64,000 nucleotides of DNA from Candidatus Woesearchaeota archaeon (GCA_964587005.1 CAZPJW010000003.1:6392-70391); one strand, 5' to 3'; counted from the first letter of the stretch, positions 20,370-26,457 are shown. The notes: a model not told the origin generated them from the letters alone. Numbers and translations are program-made.

Positions 20370-20762
20370 TTAAGCTTTTTCTTTTAGAACTAAATACGCT
20401 ATGATTAAAACCCCAATTACATTAAATGAGTCTGCTATATTAAAAATTGGCCAAACTTGTAAATCTATGAAATCTCTAACATAACCTAATGAAACTCGGT
20501 CTATTAAATTTCCAATTGTTCCTCCGAATAAAAAAGCTAAAGGAATTCTTAGATTTTTTTCTTTTTTTGCTAAGAAAAATATAAAAATTGCTACTAGGAA
20601 TGAGATTATTGTTAATAGAAATGTTTGATTTTGTAGTATTGAGAAGGCTGCTCCGGTGTTTGTTGTGTAGTTTATGAATAAAAAATGCTTATTTGTGAAT
20701 AAGTCTTTTGTTAGTTGATCTAGGAAGATTATTAATATTGAAATTAGGAGGAATTTTTTCAT
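20370..20762 (-). CDS. lspA: Lipoprotein signal peptidase (signal peptidase II, LspA-like)
   Basis: Conserved LspA blocks NTGAAFS, GGTIGNLIDR, GYVRDF and IFNIADS (catalytic Asp positions) across 4 TM segments. Confidence 0.75.
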   Translation of the reverse strand: MKKFLLISILIIFLDQLTKDLFTNKHFLFINYTTNTGAAFSILQNQTFLLTIISFLVAIFIFFLAKKEKNLRIPLAFLFGGTIGNLIDRVSLGYVRDFIDLQVWPIFNIADSFNVIGVLIIAYLVLKEKA

Positions 20763-20815: not shown

Positions 20816-21916
20816 GTGGAAACTTGTAAAGAACCACCAAAGAGACTTTCTATTATTGTTAAGCCGACTCATGATTGCAATATGGGCTGTGAGTATTGTT
20901 ACATTGATCCCGAAGCAGAACAAGGAGTTATGGATGAAGGAACATTGGAAAATATGGTTAATAAATCGATGTCTACCCATGATTCTGTTCATTTTATCTG
21001 GCATGGGGGGGAACCCTTGTTGTTACCCCTGTCTTTTTATAGAAAGGCTGTTGAATTTCAAAAGCAATTTGAAGGCAAAGGTGTCAGCAATGGATTTCAG
21101 ACTAACGGAACACTAGTAACTAAGGAAGTTCTGGATTTTTGCGAGGAGAATCAATTTAGTATGGGATTTAGTTTAGATGGTCCAAAACATATTAATGATG
21201 AAACTAGGCATTTTAAAGACGGAAGCAGTAGTTATCTAAAAACATTAAGAGCGATTAAGCGAGCACAAAAGAGAAAAGTGGGAGGGGGCGCTATTGTTGT
21301 TGTGAATAAAACAAATGTAGATAGGCTCCCGGAGATATATGAATTTGCTCAGAGGCAAGGAATAAACTTGAAATTGAATCCGTTGATTAAGGCAGGTTCC
21401 GCTCTTGATAGTATGGAAGATTTGGGTATTGGTCCCCTAGAATATGGTCGAGCTTTAGTAGATTTATTTGATAGGTGGTTTTATGATGATTCTAGTGTTA
21501 GAGTGGATCCCTTTGAAGATTTGATGGGCAATTTGTTAACTGGGAAACCTTGGGGATGTAATTATTCTGAATCTTGCCAAAATTCCTTTATATCTGTTGG
21601 TCCACAAGGAGACATATACCCTTGTGGGAGGTTTGATGGAGTTCCTGGATTTCATTTAGGAAATGTAAATGAGGGAGATCTTGCTGATGTTTTAACTTCG
21701 GAGAAAAGGTTACATCTGAGAGGAAGGGCCGAACGGATTGAGCCCTGTCAGCCGTGCGAACATAAGGATATATGCAATTCTGGCTGTATGCATAATGCTT
21801 ACATGAGGAGAGGCAGAGTCGATGATAGAGATTATTATTGCGCAAGCTTTAAATTGTTGTTTGATCATATTAATGAAGCGATGGATGCTGAGTTGGCTAA
21901 CGCGGAGGTGAAATGA
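20816..21916 (+). CDS. Radical SAM enzyme with a C-terminal SPASM domain (peptide-maturase type)
   Basis: CNMGCEYC CxxxCxxC cluster, GGEPLL, and a C-terminal auxiliary-cluster Cys array (CNYSESC...CGRF...CQPCEHKDICNSGC); more GC-rich than the flanks; stop overlaps the start of the first downstream small ORF (ATGA). Confidence 0.8.
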   Translation: METCKEPPKRLSIIVKPTHDCNMGCEYCYIDPEAEQGVMDEGTLENMVNKSMSTHDSVHFIWHGGEPLLLPLSFYRKAVEFQKQFEGKGVSNGFQTNGTLVTKEVLDFCEENQFSMGFSLDGPKHINDETRHFKDGSSSYLKTLRAIKRAQKRKVGGGAIVVVNKTNVDRLPEIYEFAQRQGINLKLNPLIKAGSALDSMEDLGIGPLEYGRALVDLFDRWFYDDSSVRVDPFEDLMGNLLTGKPWGCNYSESCQNSFISVGPQGDIYPCGRFDGVPGFHLGNVNEGDLADVLTSEKRLHLRGRAERIEPCQPCEHKDICNSGCMHNAYMRRGRVDDRDYYCASFKLLFDHINEAMDAELANAEVK

Positions 21917-22182
21917 TGGCTGAATTAGAGGGAATTGTTATGGTAAACGGAAGAAAAATTGATATAAGAAAGGTTAGTAATAAAAGAATGAGATATGTTT
22001 TAGGGGGATTTTCTGAATCCACCTCAGACGGATTTATGTTTCGAAAGAGAAATCATACAGATTACACTGACCATTCTGAATATGAAATAGGTATAGACTG
22101 TGATCCTGCGGACCATTGGGGGCATACGGACCATTCTAACTATAGTGACCATAAAGATAAACATACAGACAATCATAAGTAA
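21913..22182 (+). CDS. Putative RiPP precursor peptide A (leader plus HTD/YTD/YSD repeat core)
   Basis: 89 aa; leader-like NGRKIDIRKVSNKRMRYVLG...DGFMFRKRNHTD shared with the next two ORFs; core rich in H/Y-T/S-D/E triplets; start codon overlaps the maturase stop. Confidence 0.5.
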   Translation: MMAELEGIVMVNGRKIDIRKVSNKRMRYVLGGFSESTSDGFMFRKRNHTDYTDHSEYEIGIDCDPADHWGHTDHSNYSDHKDKHTDNHK

Positions 22183-22204
22183 TACTTTGTGAGGTGAAAT
22201 TGAA

Positions 22205-22435
22205 ATGGAAAGATTAGAAGAAAAAGTTATTGAAATACAAGGCAAAAAAATTGACCTAAATAAATTAGGAAATAAAAGAATGAGATATGTTTTAGGAAGA
22301 CTTGATTATTCTGACGGGTTTTTGTTTTGGAAAAGAAATCATACTGACCATCGGGAACACACGGATGAAGATGGAGGAATTGATTGTAGTCATATTAATT
22401 GGACCGATCATACAGATTATTCCGAGAATTGTTAG
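22205..22435 (+). CDS. Putative RiPP precursor peptide B
   Basis: 76 aa; QGKKIDLNKLGNKRMRYVLG...DGFLFWKRNHTDHREHTDEDGGIDCSHINWTDHTDYSENC; paralog of peptide A. Confidence 0.5.
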   Translation: MERLEEKVIEIQGKKIDLNKLGNKRMRYVLGRLDYSDGFLFWKRNHTDHREHTDEDGGIDCSHINWTDHTDYSENC

Positions 22436-22516
22436 GAATGGATAATTTATGGTTGTTGGGGTCAAAGTTTGAAAGGCATAAAGATTTGTATGGTGGTTCA
22501 AATAGGTAATTAAGAA

Positions 22517-22960
22517 ATGTCAAAGATAATAAGGTTTAATGGAAGGAGAATTGATTTGGGAAGGATCACAAACCTAAAATTAGTTGAAGTGTTTAAAGAA
22601 AGAGTTCATGATGGAAATAGATTTTTGTTTTTTCATAAAGATAATTATACGGAAGAACATACCGATCGTAGTAAAAGAAATTATGATGATTATTCTGATC
22701 ATTCTGAATACGGAGATCATCACGATCATAAAGATGGACACAGAGATTATGACAAATATTATGATCGTCATAATGATCGGGGCGAGGGGCATACTGATAA
22801 ATTTGGTAAATTTCATTTTAATAGGGATGACCATACTGACCACGGAGGAGTTCCCAGATTCCATAGGGATTCGGCGGGAGGAATAGGGAGAAGCCATGAA
22901 GATCATGGTGGTCATAAGAAAAATAAACATACTGATGATCATACTGATAAGACCAAGTGA
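22517..22960 (+). CDS. Putative RiPP precursor peptide C (extended His/Asp/Tyr-rich core)
   Basis: 147 aa; the NGRRIDLGRITN leader is homologous to A and B; the core has many HTD/YSD/HSE/YDD triplets and is His-rich. Confidence 0.5.
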   Translation: MSKIIRFNGRRIDLGRITNLKLVEVFKERVHDGNRFLFFHKDNYTEEHTDRSKRNYDDYSDHSEYGDHHDHKDGHRDYDKYYDRHNDRGEGHTDKFGKFHFNRDDHTDHGGVPRFHRDSAGGIGRSHEDHGGHKKNKHTDDHTDKTK

Positions 22961-23017: not shown

Positions 23018-24535
23018 ATGGCTGAAATGAGTATAGAATCTGCTAGAGAGAAGTTGAAAGATAAGAAGACTTCTTTTAAAAAGAAAATTGAAATTAGGCA
23101 GAAACTTATTGAAAAACTAAGAAAAGAAAAACAGGTTAAGTTTTCTGTTGGAGACCCTGTTGAATATAAGATTATTTATGATACTTTTGCTGGTTCTTTG
23201 GAGCCAGTTTATTTTTGGACTTTAGATTTTTTAAGAAATAATAATCCTTCAGGATTGGGATTTGAGGTGGATAAGACTGCTGAAGAATTTGAGGCTACTG
23301 CTGGTGGAGGTTTTTTTGGAGAGTTAGGTTCAAGGGCTACTGTGATGCAGGAAAGGGGAATGAAAATATTAGAAACGGTTAATGCGGTTTTGAGAACAAT
23401 TATTAATTTAATTTATGATTTGAAAGAGTTTGAAATGAGATTGAATGCTTATGATGATGCGAATTCTGAAGATAAACAAAGAAAGGATGCTGGAGAGTAT
23501 TCTTTGAAAGGAATTTGGATGGATCAAGTTGATGTTAAAACAGGCTTAGGAAGTATTAATCAATTGACAAGGGGAGATTTACAATTTGTTACTTTGAGAG
23601 ATGCATTTATGCAGGCTAGAGTTTATAAGAAAAAGGATGGCTCTTTTAACAAGTCTAAAACTTTCAAGGATATAGGTGAAAGTGAAAAAGAAGGAATGGA
23701 TTTGAATAGAAGAGTTAAGGTTTTGTTAAAGAAAAAACTTGAAGAATATTTGAATTGGAGAGAGGCTAGTGAAAAAGAGCTGAAGAAAAGATTTGAGATA
23801 GAAAAAAATTATTTGAAAGCACAAGTTGATAGTTTGAAGTTGTATACTACGTGGGCAAAGCCTTATTTGAGGGCGGCCCAGAAATTAGGAATGAAAGAAT
23901 TTAAGACGGGTAGAGATTTGCCTGTTCCGGATATGGTTACAGCGTTTAATAGTATGCAAATGAATTTGAAATTGTTGGGCAGAAAAGAGTTTAAACCTAC
24001 GAAGGTCCATCCTTCTTTTGATAAATTTGATTTTGGAAAGAAATACTATTCATGCATTGAAGTAGAGTTTTTGTATAGGTCTGCTCCACAAGTGGTAAAA
24101 CAAGGGCAGAGCCAACATTATACCCACATGGGCACTGTTGAAGTTTGTTTTAAGGCGTTTGTTTTTGATGATAGGGATTTAGAAGATATTTATGCTCAAG
24201 AGGTTTATGAAGATATGGCTTTAGTTGAAGAATTAACTGAGACCTCTTTGAATGATTTGCAAGAAGATATAGAAAGATATATTTACCCGGATGAAAAAAA
24301 AGAAGAAGAGGATAATGGTCAGGACCTATTTAGTGGAATTTTGGGTGGTTTTAGTAGTTTGAAAAAAGTCTCTAAGTTTCCTAGTAAGATTATGAAACTT
24401 GGTCCTTCTGGAAAAAGAAATGCTGGAAGTTATGAAAAGAAAAAAGTTGTTCAAGAAGCTGGTGATAGTGCAAGAGATAGTTGTTATGTTTTATATGATG
24501 TTTTTAAGAAGTCACATGGAATGGTAACATGGTAG
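23018..24535 (+). CDS. Hypothetical protein (505 aa), start-coupled to the downstream Nfo-like gene
   Basis: No recognisable motifs; its stop overlaps the next start within ATGGTAG; charged coiled-coil segments. Confidence 0.3.
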   Translation: MAEMSIESAREKLKDKKTSFKKKIEIRQKLIEKLRKEKQVKFSVGDPVEYKIIYDTFAGSLEPVYFWTLDFLRNNNPSGLGFEVDKTAEEFEATAGGGFFGELGSRATVMQERGMKILETVNAVLRTIINLIYDLKEFEMRLNAYDDANSEDKQRKDAGEYSLKGIWMDQVDVKTGLGSINQLTRGDLQFVTLRDAFMQARVYKKKDGSFNKSKTFKDIGESEKEGMDLNRRVKVLLKKKLEEYLNWREASEKELKKRFEIEKNYLKAQVDSLKLYTTWAKPYLRAAQKLGMKEFKTGRDLPVPDMVTAFNSMQMNLKLLGRKEFKPTKVHPSFDKFDFGKKYYSCIEVEFLYRSAPQVVKQGQSQHYTHMGTVEVCFKAFVFDDRDLEDIYAQEVYEDMALVEELTETSLNDLQEDIERYIYPDEKKEEEDNGQDLFSGILGGFSSLKKVSKFPSKIMKLGPSGKRNAGSYEKKKVVQEAGDSARDSCYVLYDVFKKSHGMVTW

Positions 24536-26457
24536 ATAGATTTCATAAGGATGTTCAAGAGAATATGGATAGTTCTAATTCTATGAAGTTTGGAGATTTA
24601 AGTTGGACTACTAATCCTCAAAGTGCCAATCAATTGGCAGAGTTAGGTAAGAGATTAAATGAGGGAGTTAAGAATGTGGAAGTGGGTGCTTTGAGTCAAC
24701 AAGTTTTTGATGCAATTCCTCAGCAACATTTTGAAGAAATGAGAAGGCTTTCTAAAATGGGCGGCGTTGGTTTAACTATGCATGCCCCTTTGACTGATCC
24801 CGCAGGTTTTTCAGAAAGAGGTTGGGCAGAACATAGTAGGAATTTGGCTGGGCAAGAATTTAAGGATGTTGTTGATAGGGCACATAAGCTTAGCCCAGAT
24901 GGGAAAATGACAGTTAATTTTCATTCATCTGGCGGAGGTATTGCTGCCACAGTTTGGGAGAAGAAAGAAAAAGGGAAACCTGAAGAAAAACAATTTATTT
25001 CTGCAGTTAATACAAGAACTGGTGAGATTAAACCAATTCAACGAGATAAGATGGATTGGTTAACTGGGGAAAAGATAATGACTCCTCAAGATAAGTTAGA
25101 TAATCTAAATAACGTTTCTTGGGATCAAGATATTATGCAAGTAATGTCTATGAAACACCAAAAAGATGAAATTGATAATCAACAGATGAAATGGAGAACT
25201 CAAACTCCTCAAGGTTTACAGTTGCTTGAGTTGGAAATGAAAAAAAAGAAGGGAAGGATTACGGGGCAAGAAGAAAAATTGAGAAATGAATTGCTTTCGG
25301 AAGATAAATTTTTTGAAGCCCATAAAGAGGAAATTAATCAAGTTATGATGAGTCAGTTAAATAGTTTGTATAATGATTATAAGCATTACGCTGAATCCAA
25401 AGCAAAAGATGTAGAAGAGAATAGAGATTATCATGATAAAAATTTAAAAATGTTTGGGAAAATTAAGAAAAAGTATGCAGAAAGAAATAAATATATGAAT
25501 GAGAGACTTAAAACGGAAGATAAGAAATTTAAGGAATGGATTGTAAAAAATCCAAATGTTTCAACGGAAGAAATATTAGAAAAACAGGCTAGTATCCGTG
25601 AGGATGTGTTTAGAAAAGCTAAGGAAAAGGGATTGGATATTTCTCCAGAACGATTAAGTTTAATGTTGAAAAATATTGAAGCGCCCGAAAGGTTTAGGCC
25701 TGCAGATGATGTGGCTAGAGAAAAGGCCGCAGAAACTTTTGCTGATGTTGCTTTGCACGCACATGAAAAATATGGCGATAAGGCGCCCCTAATTGCTATT
25801 GAAAATGTTTATCCTGAATGGACCTTGTCTAGAGCAGAGTCTTTGAAGGGAATGGTTGGGGATTCTAAGAAATTACTTGTTAAGAAGTTAAAGGAAAAGG
25901 GAATTGGTGAAGGTGAAGCAAAAAGAATTGCTGAAACTAAAATGGGAGTTACTTGGGATCTTGGGCATATCAATCAATTAAGGAAGTATGGATTTACCAA
26001 AGAAGATATTGTTAAGGAAGCTGAAAAGATAGGGAAACATGTAAAACATATTCATATTACAGATAATTTTGGTTATTCTGATAGTCATTTAGCTCCAGGA
26101 ATGGGAAATGTTCCAATAAAAGAGCAACTTGAAGCCATTGAAAAGAAAGTTGGAAAAGATGAATATAGAAGAATGAAAGGAGTTATTGAGGGCGGAGGGA
26201 TGTTTCAACAATTTCAAGCTAATCCTGTTCCGTATACTATGGATGAGGGGGCGTTTAATAGCCCATTTTATACTTATGATGGTCCAAGTTGGGGTGATGT
26301 GAAAGATTTGTATTCGTCTTATATGTTTGGATTTGGAGATGTTTTGCCAGATGTTCATTTCAAAACCCAGGGGGCAGGATTTTCGATGTTACCCAAGGAG
26401 TTGGGTGGTGGAGGTGGTGGCGGAGATAAAGGGAGATTTGCGGATCAGAATCAATAA
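24529..26457 (+). CDS. Endonuclease IV (Nfo)/xylose-isomerase-like TIM-barrel protein with a large coiled-coil insertion
   Basis: Nfo-like metal-ligand blocks appear in the expected order: MHAPL, VNFHSSGG, then a ~300-aa K/E-rich insertion, then LIAIENVYPE, GVTWDLGHINQL, HIHITDNFG..DSHLAPGMGNVPI; poly-Gly C-terminus. Confidence 0.55.
   Translation: MVDRFHKDVQENMDSSNSMKFGDLSWTTNPQSANQLAELGKRLNEGVKNVEVGALSQQVFDAIPQQHFEEMRRLSKMGGVGLTMHAPLTDPAGFSERGWAEHSRNLAGQEFKDVVDRAHKLSPDGKMTVNFHSSGGGIAATVWEKKEKGKPEEKQFISAVNTRTGEIKPIQRDKMDWLTGEKIMTPQDKLDNLNNVSWDQDIMQVMSMKHQKDEIDNQQMKWRTQTPQGLQLLELEMKKKKGRITGQEEKLRNELLSEDKFFEAHKEEINQVMMSQLNSLYNDYKHYAESKAKDVEENRDYHDKNLKMFGKIKKKYAERNKYMNERLKTEDKKFKEWIVKNPNVSTEEILEKQASIREDVFRKAKEKGLDISPERLSLMLKNIEAPERFRPADDVAREKAAETFADVALHAHEKYGDKAPLIAIENVYPEWTLSRAESLKGMVGDSKKLLVKKLKEKGIGEGEAKRIAETKMGVTWDLGHINQLRKYGFTKEDIVKEAEKIGKHVKHIHITDNFGYSDSHLAPGMGNVPIKEQLEAIEKKVGKDEYRRMKGVIEGGGMFQQFQANPVPYTMDEGAFNSPFYTYDGPSWGDVKDLYSSYMFGFGDVLPDVHFKTQGAGFSMLPKELGGGGGGGDKGRFADQNQ

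Follow-up and report, generated by a model that had tools for sequence, protein, structure and literature searches.

A radical SAM/SPASM maturase start-coupled to three paralogous peptides rich in His/Tyr-Thr-Asp units: a candidate triceptide-like cassette in a Woesearchaeota-like archaeon

The closest described counterparts of the system analyzed here are radical S-adenosylmethionine (SAM) enzymes that crosslink three-residue motifs in peptides that are ribosomally synthesized and then post-translationally modified (RiPPs). Among the triceptide synthases, HtkB, HaaB and YhhB convert HTK, HAA and HNR motifs, respectively, into rings joining His C2 to a beta-carbon (PMC11499958), and MicB forms its rings on YSK, HAS and FTK motifs (PMC12912966). 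His-Thr-Lys, His-Ala-Ala and Tyr-Ser-Lys triplets are thus experimentally proven substrates of enzymes related to the one described below (PMC11499958, PMC12912966). The dynobactin enzyme DynA, in turn, makes a link from His N-epsilon to Tyr C-beta on an H-S-Y motif, together with a Trp-Asn carbon-carbon link (PMC10288494). Here we report on a 64,000-nucleotide stretch of DNA from Candidatus Woesearchaeota archaeon (GCA_964587005.1 CAZPJW010000003.1:6392-70391), hereafter the window, in which positions 20816-22960 encode a radical SAM/SPASM peptide maturase (rSAM) followed by three small paralogous peptides (pepA, pepB and pepC). The region is most likely a self-contained 2.2-kb accessory RiPP cassette of a Woesearchaeota-like DPANN archaeon. 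By analogy with the enzymes above, we consider it probable that it specifies a triceptide-like system, in which His, Tyr or Trp would be linked to the beta-carbon of an Asp or Glu located two residues further on.

The cassette consists of four co-directional open reading frames (ORFs) on the plus strand, as read from both the ORF listing and the raw sequence. The maturase gene (20816-21916; 366 aa) ends in a TGA codon that overlaps the ATG of pepA as ATGA, and a Shine-Dalgarno-like GGAGGTGA element lies within its 3' end (21904-21911, plus strand), upstream of the pepA start codon (21913 or 21916). The pepA gene (21913-22182; 89 aa) encodes a leader of residues 1-47 (21913-22053) and a core of residues 48-89 (22054-22179). 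A further Shine-Dalgarno-like element, GAGGTGA (22191-22197, plus strand), is found 7 nt 5' of the ATG of pepB (22205-22435; 76 aa), which encodes a leader of residues 1-45 (22205-22339) and a core of residues 46-76 (22340-22432). Both elements were recognized from sequence and are presumed to function as ribosome-binding sites. The third precursor gene, pepC (22517-22960; 147 aa), encodes a leader of residues 1-43 (22517-22645) and a core of residues 44-147 (22646-22957). These data confirm a preliminary description of this DNA with regard to the coordinates of the SPASM gene, its ATGA overlap with the start of an 89-aa ORF and the presence of two further ORFs of 76 and 147 aa on the same strand. 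A scan for sigma-70 sites returned 14 against 11.9 expected, and no terminators (0), under a scan model that is uninformative for an archaeon.

The first ~45 residues of the three peptides can be aligned, after which their His/Asp/Tyr-rich tails diverge. The N-terminal block that the preliminary description had likened to a leader is real, with G13, I16, D17, N23, V29, D39-G40 and an F-x-F element invariant across pepA, pepB and pepC. The NKRMRYVLG and GIDC elements attributed to pepA and pepB are indeed common to both. The leader is laid out as a strand-like V-I-E-x-x-G-x-x-I-D-L segment, a helix (I-x-N-x-x-L-x-x-V-L) and a D-G-x-x-F-L-F segment, and a leader hidden Markov model (HMM) matched the three peptides with E = 2.6e-16 (pepA), 3.2e-20 (pepB) and 5.2e-10 (pepC). 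No match for any of them was obtained in Pfam and NCBIfam scans. The three paralogs are old and constrained, with pS values of 0.72-0.99 (synonymous sites saturated) and pN values of 0.3-0.4, and do not present the pattern of relaxed constraint. The loci designated L001-L010 are 99.9-100% identical to the window and uninformative on selection.

Downstream of the leader, all three cores are dense in [H/Y/W]-[T/S]-[D/E] units, as had been proposed. The pattern [HYWF]-[TS]-[DE] occurs 6, 5 and 8 times in pepA, pepB and pepC, versus shuffle means of 0.53, 0.40 and 0.78, and none of 10,000 composition-preserving shuffles (0/10,000) reached the observed counts, which shows that composition alone does not account for the triplet pattern. 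The more permissive [HYWF]-x-[DE] pattern is present in 7, 6 and 17 instances, versus 3.1, 2.0 and 6.7 in shuffles. The pepC core contains exactly five HTD units, in agreement with the earlier count, and terminates in HTDK. Cysteine is scarce in these peptides, with one residue in pepA, two in pepB and none in the pepC core.

Homologs of the maturase number more than 1,000 and are found mostly in Woese-, Pace-, Aenigm- and Nanoarchaeota. The ORFs downstream of the enzyme were read in 80 species-representative loci, and the leader HMM was run on all 8,890 ORFs of these loci. Matches were located solely beside the enzyme (33 of the 80 loci), in all but one case (L032) on the enzyme strand, with one to four leader ORFs per locus (four in tandem in L051; two in L016, L017, L021 and L027). 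When the peptide alignment served as query for a word-indexed search of 5.8 billion proteins, only the peptides of the window itself were recovered; an HMM of the three window leaders, run without indexing against 1.84 billion proteins, returned 11 further members and the peptide of L011. Several of these terminate in H-T-D-K like pepC, and relatives repeatedly show H-[TS]-D-K at the C terminus. An additional member of the leader-peptide family was identified in L174. The peptides are hence conserved outside this genome, and the suggested search beside rSAM genes of DPANN and other archaeal metagenomes did recover ORFs combining leader and core.

In a neighbor-joining tree of the enzymes, the loci with associated peptides group in a single clade, which includes the window enzyme (the window clade) and whose hosts are mostly DPANN archaea, with scattered bacteria. 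As tallied by hand from this tree and the leader matches, 31 of 44 members of the window clade are accompanied by leader ORFs detected with the HMM, a figure that rises to ~39 of 44 with divergent candidates judged by eye. No leader-type peptide was found beside the enzymes of a Bacteroidales clade (0/22), and the cluster containing DynA yielded 1/12, a weak match (L071). The leader is kept from DPANN archaea to Verrucomicrobia, Kiritimatiellae, Syntrophaceae and Parabacteroides, and the cores are variable. With a conserved leader, a variable core, small size, co-localization with the enzyme and conservation across taxa, the family presents the generic features of RiPP precursors. In six loci (L011, L025, L026, L027, L030 and L038) a C39-like cysteine peptidase is encoded directly after the peptides, and such peptidases usually act as leader peptidases; no C39-like peptidase was found in the window (best E = 4.1).

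The positional signal seen in the window peptides extends to the family. Across 41 peptides, comprising 2,576 residues after the leader helix, [HYWF]-x-[DE] occurs 390 times versus 151 +/- 9 in shuffles, and [HYWF]-[TS]-[DE] 177 times versus 22 +/- 5. The second residue after His, Tyr or Trp is Asp or Glu in 67% of cases, against a background of 22%. Individual peptides carry 2-19 motifs, the commonest triplets being HTD (66), HSD (30), YSE (20) and YSD (19), and position 1 is occupied by His in 225 instances, Tyr in 148, Trp in 13 and Phe in 4.

The maturase itself was characterized through its ORF, Pfam and NCBIfam profiles and an AlphaFold2 model. Both Radical_SAM (PF04055; 61.9 bits, cut-off 29.5) and SPASM (PF13186; 32.4 bits, cut-off 21.5) were detected in the protein, which therefore presents the defining features of both the radical SAM superfamily and the SPASM domain. 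The CxxxCxxC motif (C21/C25/C28; 20876-20899), which would bind the SAM-coordinating [4Fe-4S] cluster, and the eight Cys of the SPASM region (C248, C254, C270, C311, C314, C320, C324 and C342; 21557-21841) make up 11 cluster cysteines that are invariant across 37 homologs. The eight SPASM residues align with the auxiliary-cluster Cys region of the anaerobic sulfatase-maturating enzyme (anSME) anSMEcpe. As predicted from the alignment, the 11 residues are enough for three [4Fe-4S] clusters, two of them fully ligated auxiliary clusters. Since the protein begins directly at the rSAM core, it lacks an N-terminal RiPP recognition element (RRE) domain.

Scoring against curated families, which the preliminary description had proposed as a check, succeeded at the level of the Pfam domains and did not extend to an NCBIfam subfamily. 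The top NCBIfam match was DynA (NF041298), at 321 bits and under the cut-off of 450; on the same model the Photorhabdus australis DynA used as a control scored 608.9 bits, and other members of the window clade 260-316. The anSME model TIGR03942 ranked second (253 bits, cut-off 349). Scores of 178 bits (cut-off 484) and 166 bits (cut-off 441) were obtained with PRK13745 and PRK13758, TIGR04083, a methanogen-type peptide-modifying rSAM family, was not reached (186 bits, cut-off 300), and the PapB model gave 133 bits. The closest solved structures by sequence were those of anSME (E = 1.6e-40, 26% identity), CteB and ChlB (E = 2e-16), and the match to PqqE was weak (E = 5e-7). The AlphaFold2 model (predicted local distance difference test score, 90) superposes on anSME with a TM-score of 0.84 and on ChlB-leader complexes with TM-scores of 0.81-0.83.

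Identity of the enzyme with anSME was considered and rejected. In anSMEcpe, Asp277 follows the third Cys of auxiliary cluster I and is the proposed catalytic base. The corresponding residue is Gly271 in rSAM (C270-G271-R272, against C-D in anSMEcpe), and both this Gly and a PCGRF motif are kept throughout the window clade. Furthermore, no PROSITE PS00523 sulfatase signature, strict or loose, was detected in any ORF of the window, no sulfatase Pfam domain is annotated publicly within +/-6 kb of the gene, and the C/S-x-P/A-x-R motif is absent from the three peptides. With Gly271 at the Asp277 site, no sulfatase signature in the window and a TIGR03942 score below cut-off, we conclude that the protein has an anSME-like fold and is not an anSME. 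A role for the adjacent Arg272 in reading the acidic residue of the substrate is not claimed here, since the residue is clade-wide and also occurs in members whose cores lack D/E triplets.

The locus presents a gene arrangement characteristic of triceptide systems, a SPASM maturase beside precursors with repeated omega1-X2-X3 motifs (where omega1 is the aromatic residue), the two being adjacent, start-coupled and, on the side of the precursors, enriched in the motif. The earlier suggestion that the peptides are substrates of a cyclophane-forming rSAM-SPASM enzyme is supported as far as computation allows, through DynA as the nearest family, the ChlB-like fold and the HTK, HAA and YSK precedents. 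The reaction that we regard as most likely is suggested by homology together with the motif register. pepA, pepB and pepC probably share a transcript with the enzyme gene and are translationally coupled to it, and each precursor would offer its conserved ~45-aa leader to a maturase that, being compact and lacking an RRE domain, probably makes direct contact with the leader, as ChlB does. SAM would be cleaved at the C21/C25/C28 cluster, and the resulting 5'-deoxyadenosyl radical would take a hydrogen from C-beta of the position-3 Asp or Glu in [His/Tyr/Trp]-x-[Asp/Glu]. The carbon radical would then add to the side chain of the aromatic residue two positions upstream, where HtkB, HaaB and MicB suggest, by analogy, His C2 or Tyr C3 as the atom joined, and the two auxiliary clusters would accept an electron in re-oxidizing the intermediate. 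The predicted product is a string of three-residue cyclophanes, each formed with a mass change of -2 Da, with up to ~7, 6 and 17 rings in pepA, pepB and pepC. There are precedents for attack on an acidic side chain, as PapB abstracts the C-beta hydrogen of Asp and PqqE couples the C-gamma of Glu to Tyr. The bond, the order of these events, the removal of the leader and the function of the products are inferred.

Several observations weigh against the triceptide-like assignment. The maturase reaches no curated family cut-off in NCBIfam, the models of all named cyclophane synthases included: XyeB (TIGR04496) gave 90 bits against a cut-off of 450, GrrM/OscB (TIGR04261) 134 against 310, YhhB (NF041707) 139 against 445, FxsB (TIGR04269) 108 against 370 and AmcB (NF041718) 114 against 425. 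We know of no characterized triceptide synthase that accepts an acidic residue at position 3 of its motif. The pepC core, at 104 aa with 17 motifs, is far longer than typical RiPP cores, and the window cassette encodes no protease or exporter. Finally, position 2 of the family triplets is Thr or Ser in 34% of instances, a two- to three-fold enrichment, and a pure omega1-X3 crosslink needs no such bias.

The same RiPP logic could also lead to another bond, such as a dynobactin-type C-N link joining His N-epsilon and C-beta of the third residue, an ether, or a crosslink in another register. The position of DynA as the closest curated family and its His-N-epsilon chemistry speak for such a product, as do the clade members L029, L034 and L039, which have dynobactin-like ends of the type ...YNVYKYAFF. 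Other registers are conceivable because triplets are often contiguous (HTD-YTD-HSE) and position +3 is enriched in His and Tyr. Nevertheless, the characterized His-x-X enzymes outside DynA all yield C2-C-beta links (PMC11499958, PMC12912966), and the strongest positional signal, an acidic residue exactly at +2, is in the triceptide register; we thus regard a different bond as unlikely. An anSME-like oxidation that turns the position-2 Ser or Thr of H-[S/T]-D into an aldehyde or ketone would also remove 2 Da, leaving reactive or metal-binding carbonyls in place of crosslinks. It would account for the best match among solved structures, the second-best curated family and the enrichment of Thr (2.8-fold) and Ser (2.0-fold) at position 2, but it is contradicted by the sub-threshold TIGR03942 score and the higher score of DynA, the clade-wide Gly at the Asp277 site and the lack of both the C/S-x-P/A-x-R motif in the peptides and a sulfatase signature in the window. 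In addition, Ser or Thr occupies position 2 in about one third of the triplets, against two thirds for Asp or Glu at position 3, and this oxidation appears quite improbable.

The three ORFs could, alternatively, encode unmodified His/Asp-rich metal-binding or storage proteins whose neighboring rSAM enzyme has a different substrate. With 12% His and 15% Asp the cores do resemble known metal-storage peptides, and both the length of pepC (147 aa) and the lack of a protease or exporter in the cassette fit this explanation. It is, however, highly improbable in view of the conserved leader and hypervariable core, which follow the pattern of RiPP precursors, the restriction of the peptides to the neighborhood of this enzyme clade and their absence where the enzyme is absent, the overlap of the pepA start codon with the enzyme stop codon, the dedicated C39-like peptidases of six loci and an apparent enzyme-precursor fusion in L023. 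A thioether between Cys and Asp, as in sactipeptides and ranthipeptides and on a PapB-like C-x-x-x-D motif, would draw on the score of the PapB model, on the GIDC element that precedes acidic residues in pepA and pepB and on the attack of PapB on Asp C-beta. The scarcity of Cys in pepA and pepB and its absence from the pepC core contradict it, as do the family cores at large, most of which hold 0-2 Cys against 2-19 omega-x-D/E motifs, and we consider this product exceedingly improbable.

If the triceptide-like assignment is correct, the imidazole nitrogens and the carboxylate would remain free in each ring, and the products would therefore be rigid and pre-organized for metal binding. Such products would combine rigidity with an extreme density of imidazole and carboxylate groups; we therefore favor metal binding, as speculation, and our guess is that the rigidified His/Asp/Tyr-dense peptides serve as metal-binding or host-interaction peptides, a variant of the metal-binding role that the preliminary description had also raised. 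An ultra-small symbiotic archaeon might in that case employ them to capture metals or to interact with its host. The fullest version of this proposal is that these are the first cyclophane-type RiPPs from archaea (DPANN), with an undescribed crosslink from His (or Tyr/Trp) to the beta-carbon of Asp/Glu, formed up to ~17 times per peptide to make rigid poly-(His/carboxylate) metal binders; taken as a whole it is tentative, and we deem it doubtful.

The cassette occupies a variable slot in an otherwise conserved gene order. In the closest relatives, the backbone runs from the glutamyl- and tyrosyl-tRNA synthetase genes (GluRS, TyrRS) through the signal peptidase II gene (Lsp), genes for a 505-aa and a 642-aa protein and a nucleotidyltransferase gene (NTase) to PPDK, with 59-94 bp between Lsp and the 505-aa gene. 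In L091, L092 and L175 these two genes adjoin, 59-78 bp apart, and no rSAM gene is present; a contig designated P0152 has the genes in the same order, with 94 bp in the gap and no rSAM gene. The leader HMM detected no leader ORF in L091 and L092. The 505-aa protein of the window is 73% identical to that of L175, the nearest, and 64% identical to that of L091. L176 carries a different 164-aa ORF in the slot, and L011 carries the cassette in the same slot, inverted and with a peptidase. In the window (20370-20762, minus strand, and the slot as far as 23018), the interval separating the signal peptidase II and 505-aa genes is one whose content varies among relatives. The presence of Lsp beside the 505-aa gene in backbone relatives that lack the cassette identifies 20816-22960 as an accessory cassette. 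Such presence and absence in a conserved backbone supports gain or loss, and with it the proposed horizontal acquisition, more strongly than base composition does: the maturase gene is GC-rich (39.2%, second highest among 56 ORFs with a mean of 32.2% and a standard deviation of 3.7), as had been said of the whole operon, but the three peptide genes are within the normal range (31.6-35.2%). In IMG/VR, the nearest relative is only 36% identical, no leader peptides were found there, and viral carriage was rejected.

The genes that follow the cassette, encoding the 505-aa protein (23018-24535), the 642-aa protein (24529-26457) and a nucleotidyltransferase, were considered as candidate tailoring genes and rejected, since the Lsp/505/642/NTase/PPDK backbone occurs without rSAM or peptides in L091, L092, L175 and P0152. 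Members of the 505-aa family lie beside the enzyme gene in 8 loci, and members of the 642-aa family do so in 6. These two genes form a conserved DPANN gene pair that belongs to the backbone and lies outside the RiPP cassette. The 505-aa protein has more than 750 homologs, all of them in DPANN, unnamed and without a Pfam match; its AlphaFold2 model (pLDDT 74) combines long coiled coils with a beta-sheet and returned no fold match in the PDB. The 642-aa protein is a TIM barrel of the xylose-isomerase-like type, interrupted by a large insertion.

A number of relatives depart from the arrangement seen in the window. In loci from Ignavibacteriales, Terracidiphilus and Thorarchaeota (L029:6146-6370, L034:5995-6306 and L039:4714-4932), the same leader type precedes cores ending in YSDYGNIYKYAFF, YYNVYKYAFFD or YYNVYRYAFFD. 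These ends resemble dynobactin-like C-termini (...WSGNVYKYSF in L077; WNSNVHSYRF in L075), and as judged from their sequences these peptides may be of the BamA-targeting type, one of them in an archaeal metagenome-assembled genome (MAG). The leader is combined with a different core, MYDKHSDWGQQGQCGCV[M/A]GCLGG, in loci from Ignavibacteria and Bacteroidetes (L057:6103-6309, L065:3008-3211 and L073:1320-1550), where a single HSD-W unit is followed by a Cys/Gly-rich tail. In an Anaerolineales MAG (L023:4944-6449), the rSAM ORF reads on into a leader and a Tyr/Glu/Lys-rich core, for a total of 501 aa, which is either a natural fusion of maturase and precursor or an assembly error. A 51%-identical homolog in L173 (5001-10167) is fused to TPR repeats and lies beside an NHLP-type (nitrile-hydratase-leader) precursor and LanM, in what looks, from its gene content, like a hybrid rSAM/class II lanthipeptide cluster. 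Within the population of the window itself, L003 (539-1638; DNA 99.96% identical) has the rSAM gene split into ORFs of 235 and 130 aa by a single-base gap, reflecting either an assembly error or a frameshift variant in the population.

The Bacteroidales clade of rSAM/SPASM enzymes is large and carries a PCGRFC[D/E] motif; it comprises L041, L046, L048-L050, L054, L058, L059, L061, L062, L066, L069, L074, L076, L079, L082-L085, L087, L088 and L090. The two members that were scored, L048 and L059, match best on DynA (260-296 bits), below the cut-off, and not on anSME.

The literature search returned no report of an rSAM-modified RiPP from DPANN archaea and no paper on an archaeal or HTD-type family; a 2022 triceptide survey that lay outside this search may list the clade as an uncharacterized cluster. 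The statement that no family with an HTD-repeat core had been described is thus upheld for the literature searched and for Pfam and NCBIfam at the thresholds used. The retention of the cassette in many lineages with tiny genomes, often with several precursor copies, indicates a real selective function. If the proposed reaction takes place, the range of substrates known for cyclophane synthases would be widened by the acidic position 3 and by a run of as many as 17 rings, and the 366-aa RRE-less maturase would provide a compact enzyme for peptide stapling. Independently of this, the family can be searched for by means of the leader HMM and the [H/Y/W]-[T/S]-[D/E] signature, and Pfam and NCBIfam contain no model for it at the thresholds used.

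Compared with known systems, the cassette is closest by family score to that of dynobactin (NF041298; 33% identity to the DynA of L075, Photorhabdus australis, whose precursor ends in WNSNVHSYRF). Both combine a compact RRE-less enzyme with a precursor gene immediately downstream and with three-residue units that include His-x-X. The window enzyme differs in its sub-threshold score, its separate clade and its archaeal host, and, whereas the dynobactin precursor combines an unrelated leader with a single short core at the C terminus, the window peptides have long cores with 6-17 acidic triplets. A WNSNVHSYRF-type core is found only in L075, L053, L068 and L077, and the window presents HTD, YSD and HSE repeats instead.

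With PapB-type ranthipeptide maturases and PqqE, the cassette shares the use of a SPASM enzyme and, presumably, the generation of a radical on an acidic side chain that is coupled to another side chain. Homology to both is weak, however, and the coupling partners differ, being a Cys sulfur for PapB and the Tyr of a single E-x-x-x-Y motif in PqqA. Furthermore, PapB and PqqE rely on RRE or PqqD partners, unlike the RRE-less window enzyme. The likeness to anSME (TIGR03942; PDB 4K36-4K39) lies in sequence identity, fold, the predicted three [4Fe-4S] clusters and the lack of an RRE. The two are set apart by the sub-threshold family score, the replacement of Asp277 by Gly, the lack of a sulfatase and the genomic association of the window enzyme with leader peptides.

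The triceptide systems HtkB/HtkA (HTK), HaaB (HAA), YhhB (HNR) and MicB (YSK/HAS/FTK) provide the nearest match in overall logic, as they also pair an rSAM/SPASM enzyme with a leader and omega1-X2-X3 motifs, often with several per core (PMC11499958, PMC12912966). ChlB, which acts on YDR (PDB 9gm3), resembles the window enzyme in fold, with weak sequence similarity. HtkB and HaaB, whose specificity position is D214 and H204, respectively, were compared by motif alone, and on that basis the HTK of HtkA and the HTD of the window differ only at position 3. This position is acidic (Asp or Glu) in the window and Lys, Arg, Ala or Ser in the triceptide precursors, and the window precursors also have many more motifs each and a different leader family. 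The score on the YhhB model is low. The RiPP class and its logic are already established; what we rate as new, as far as comparison of sequences can indicate, is the acidic position 3, the many rings predicted per peptide, the leader family and the DPANN hosts.

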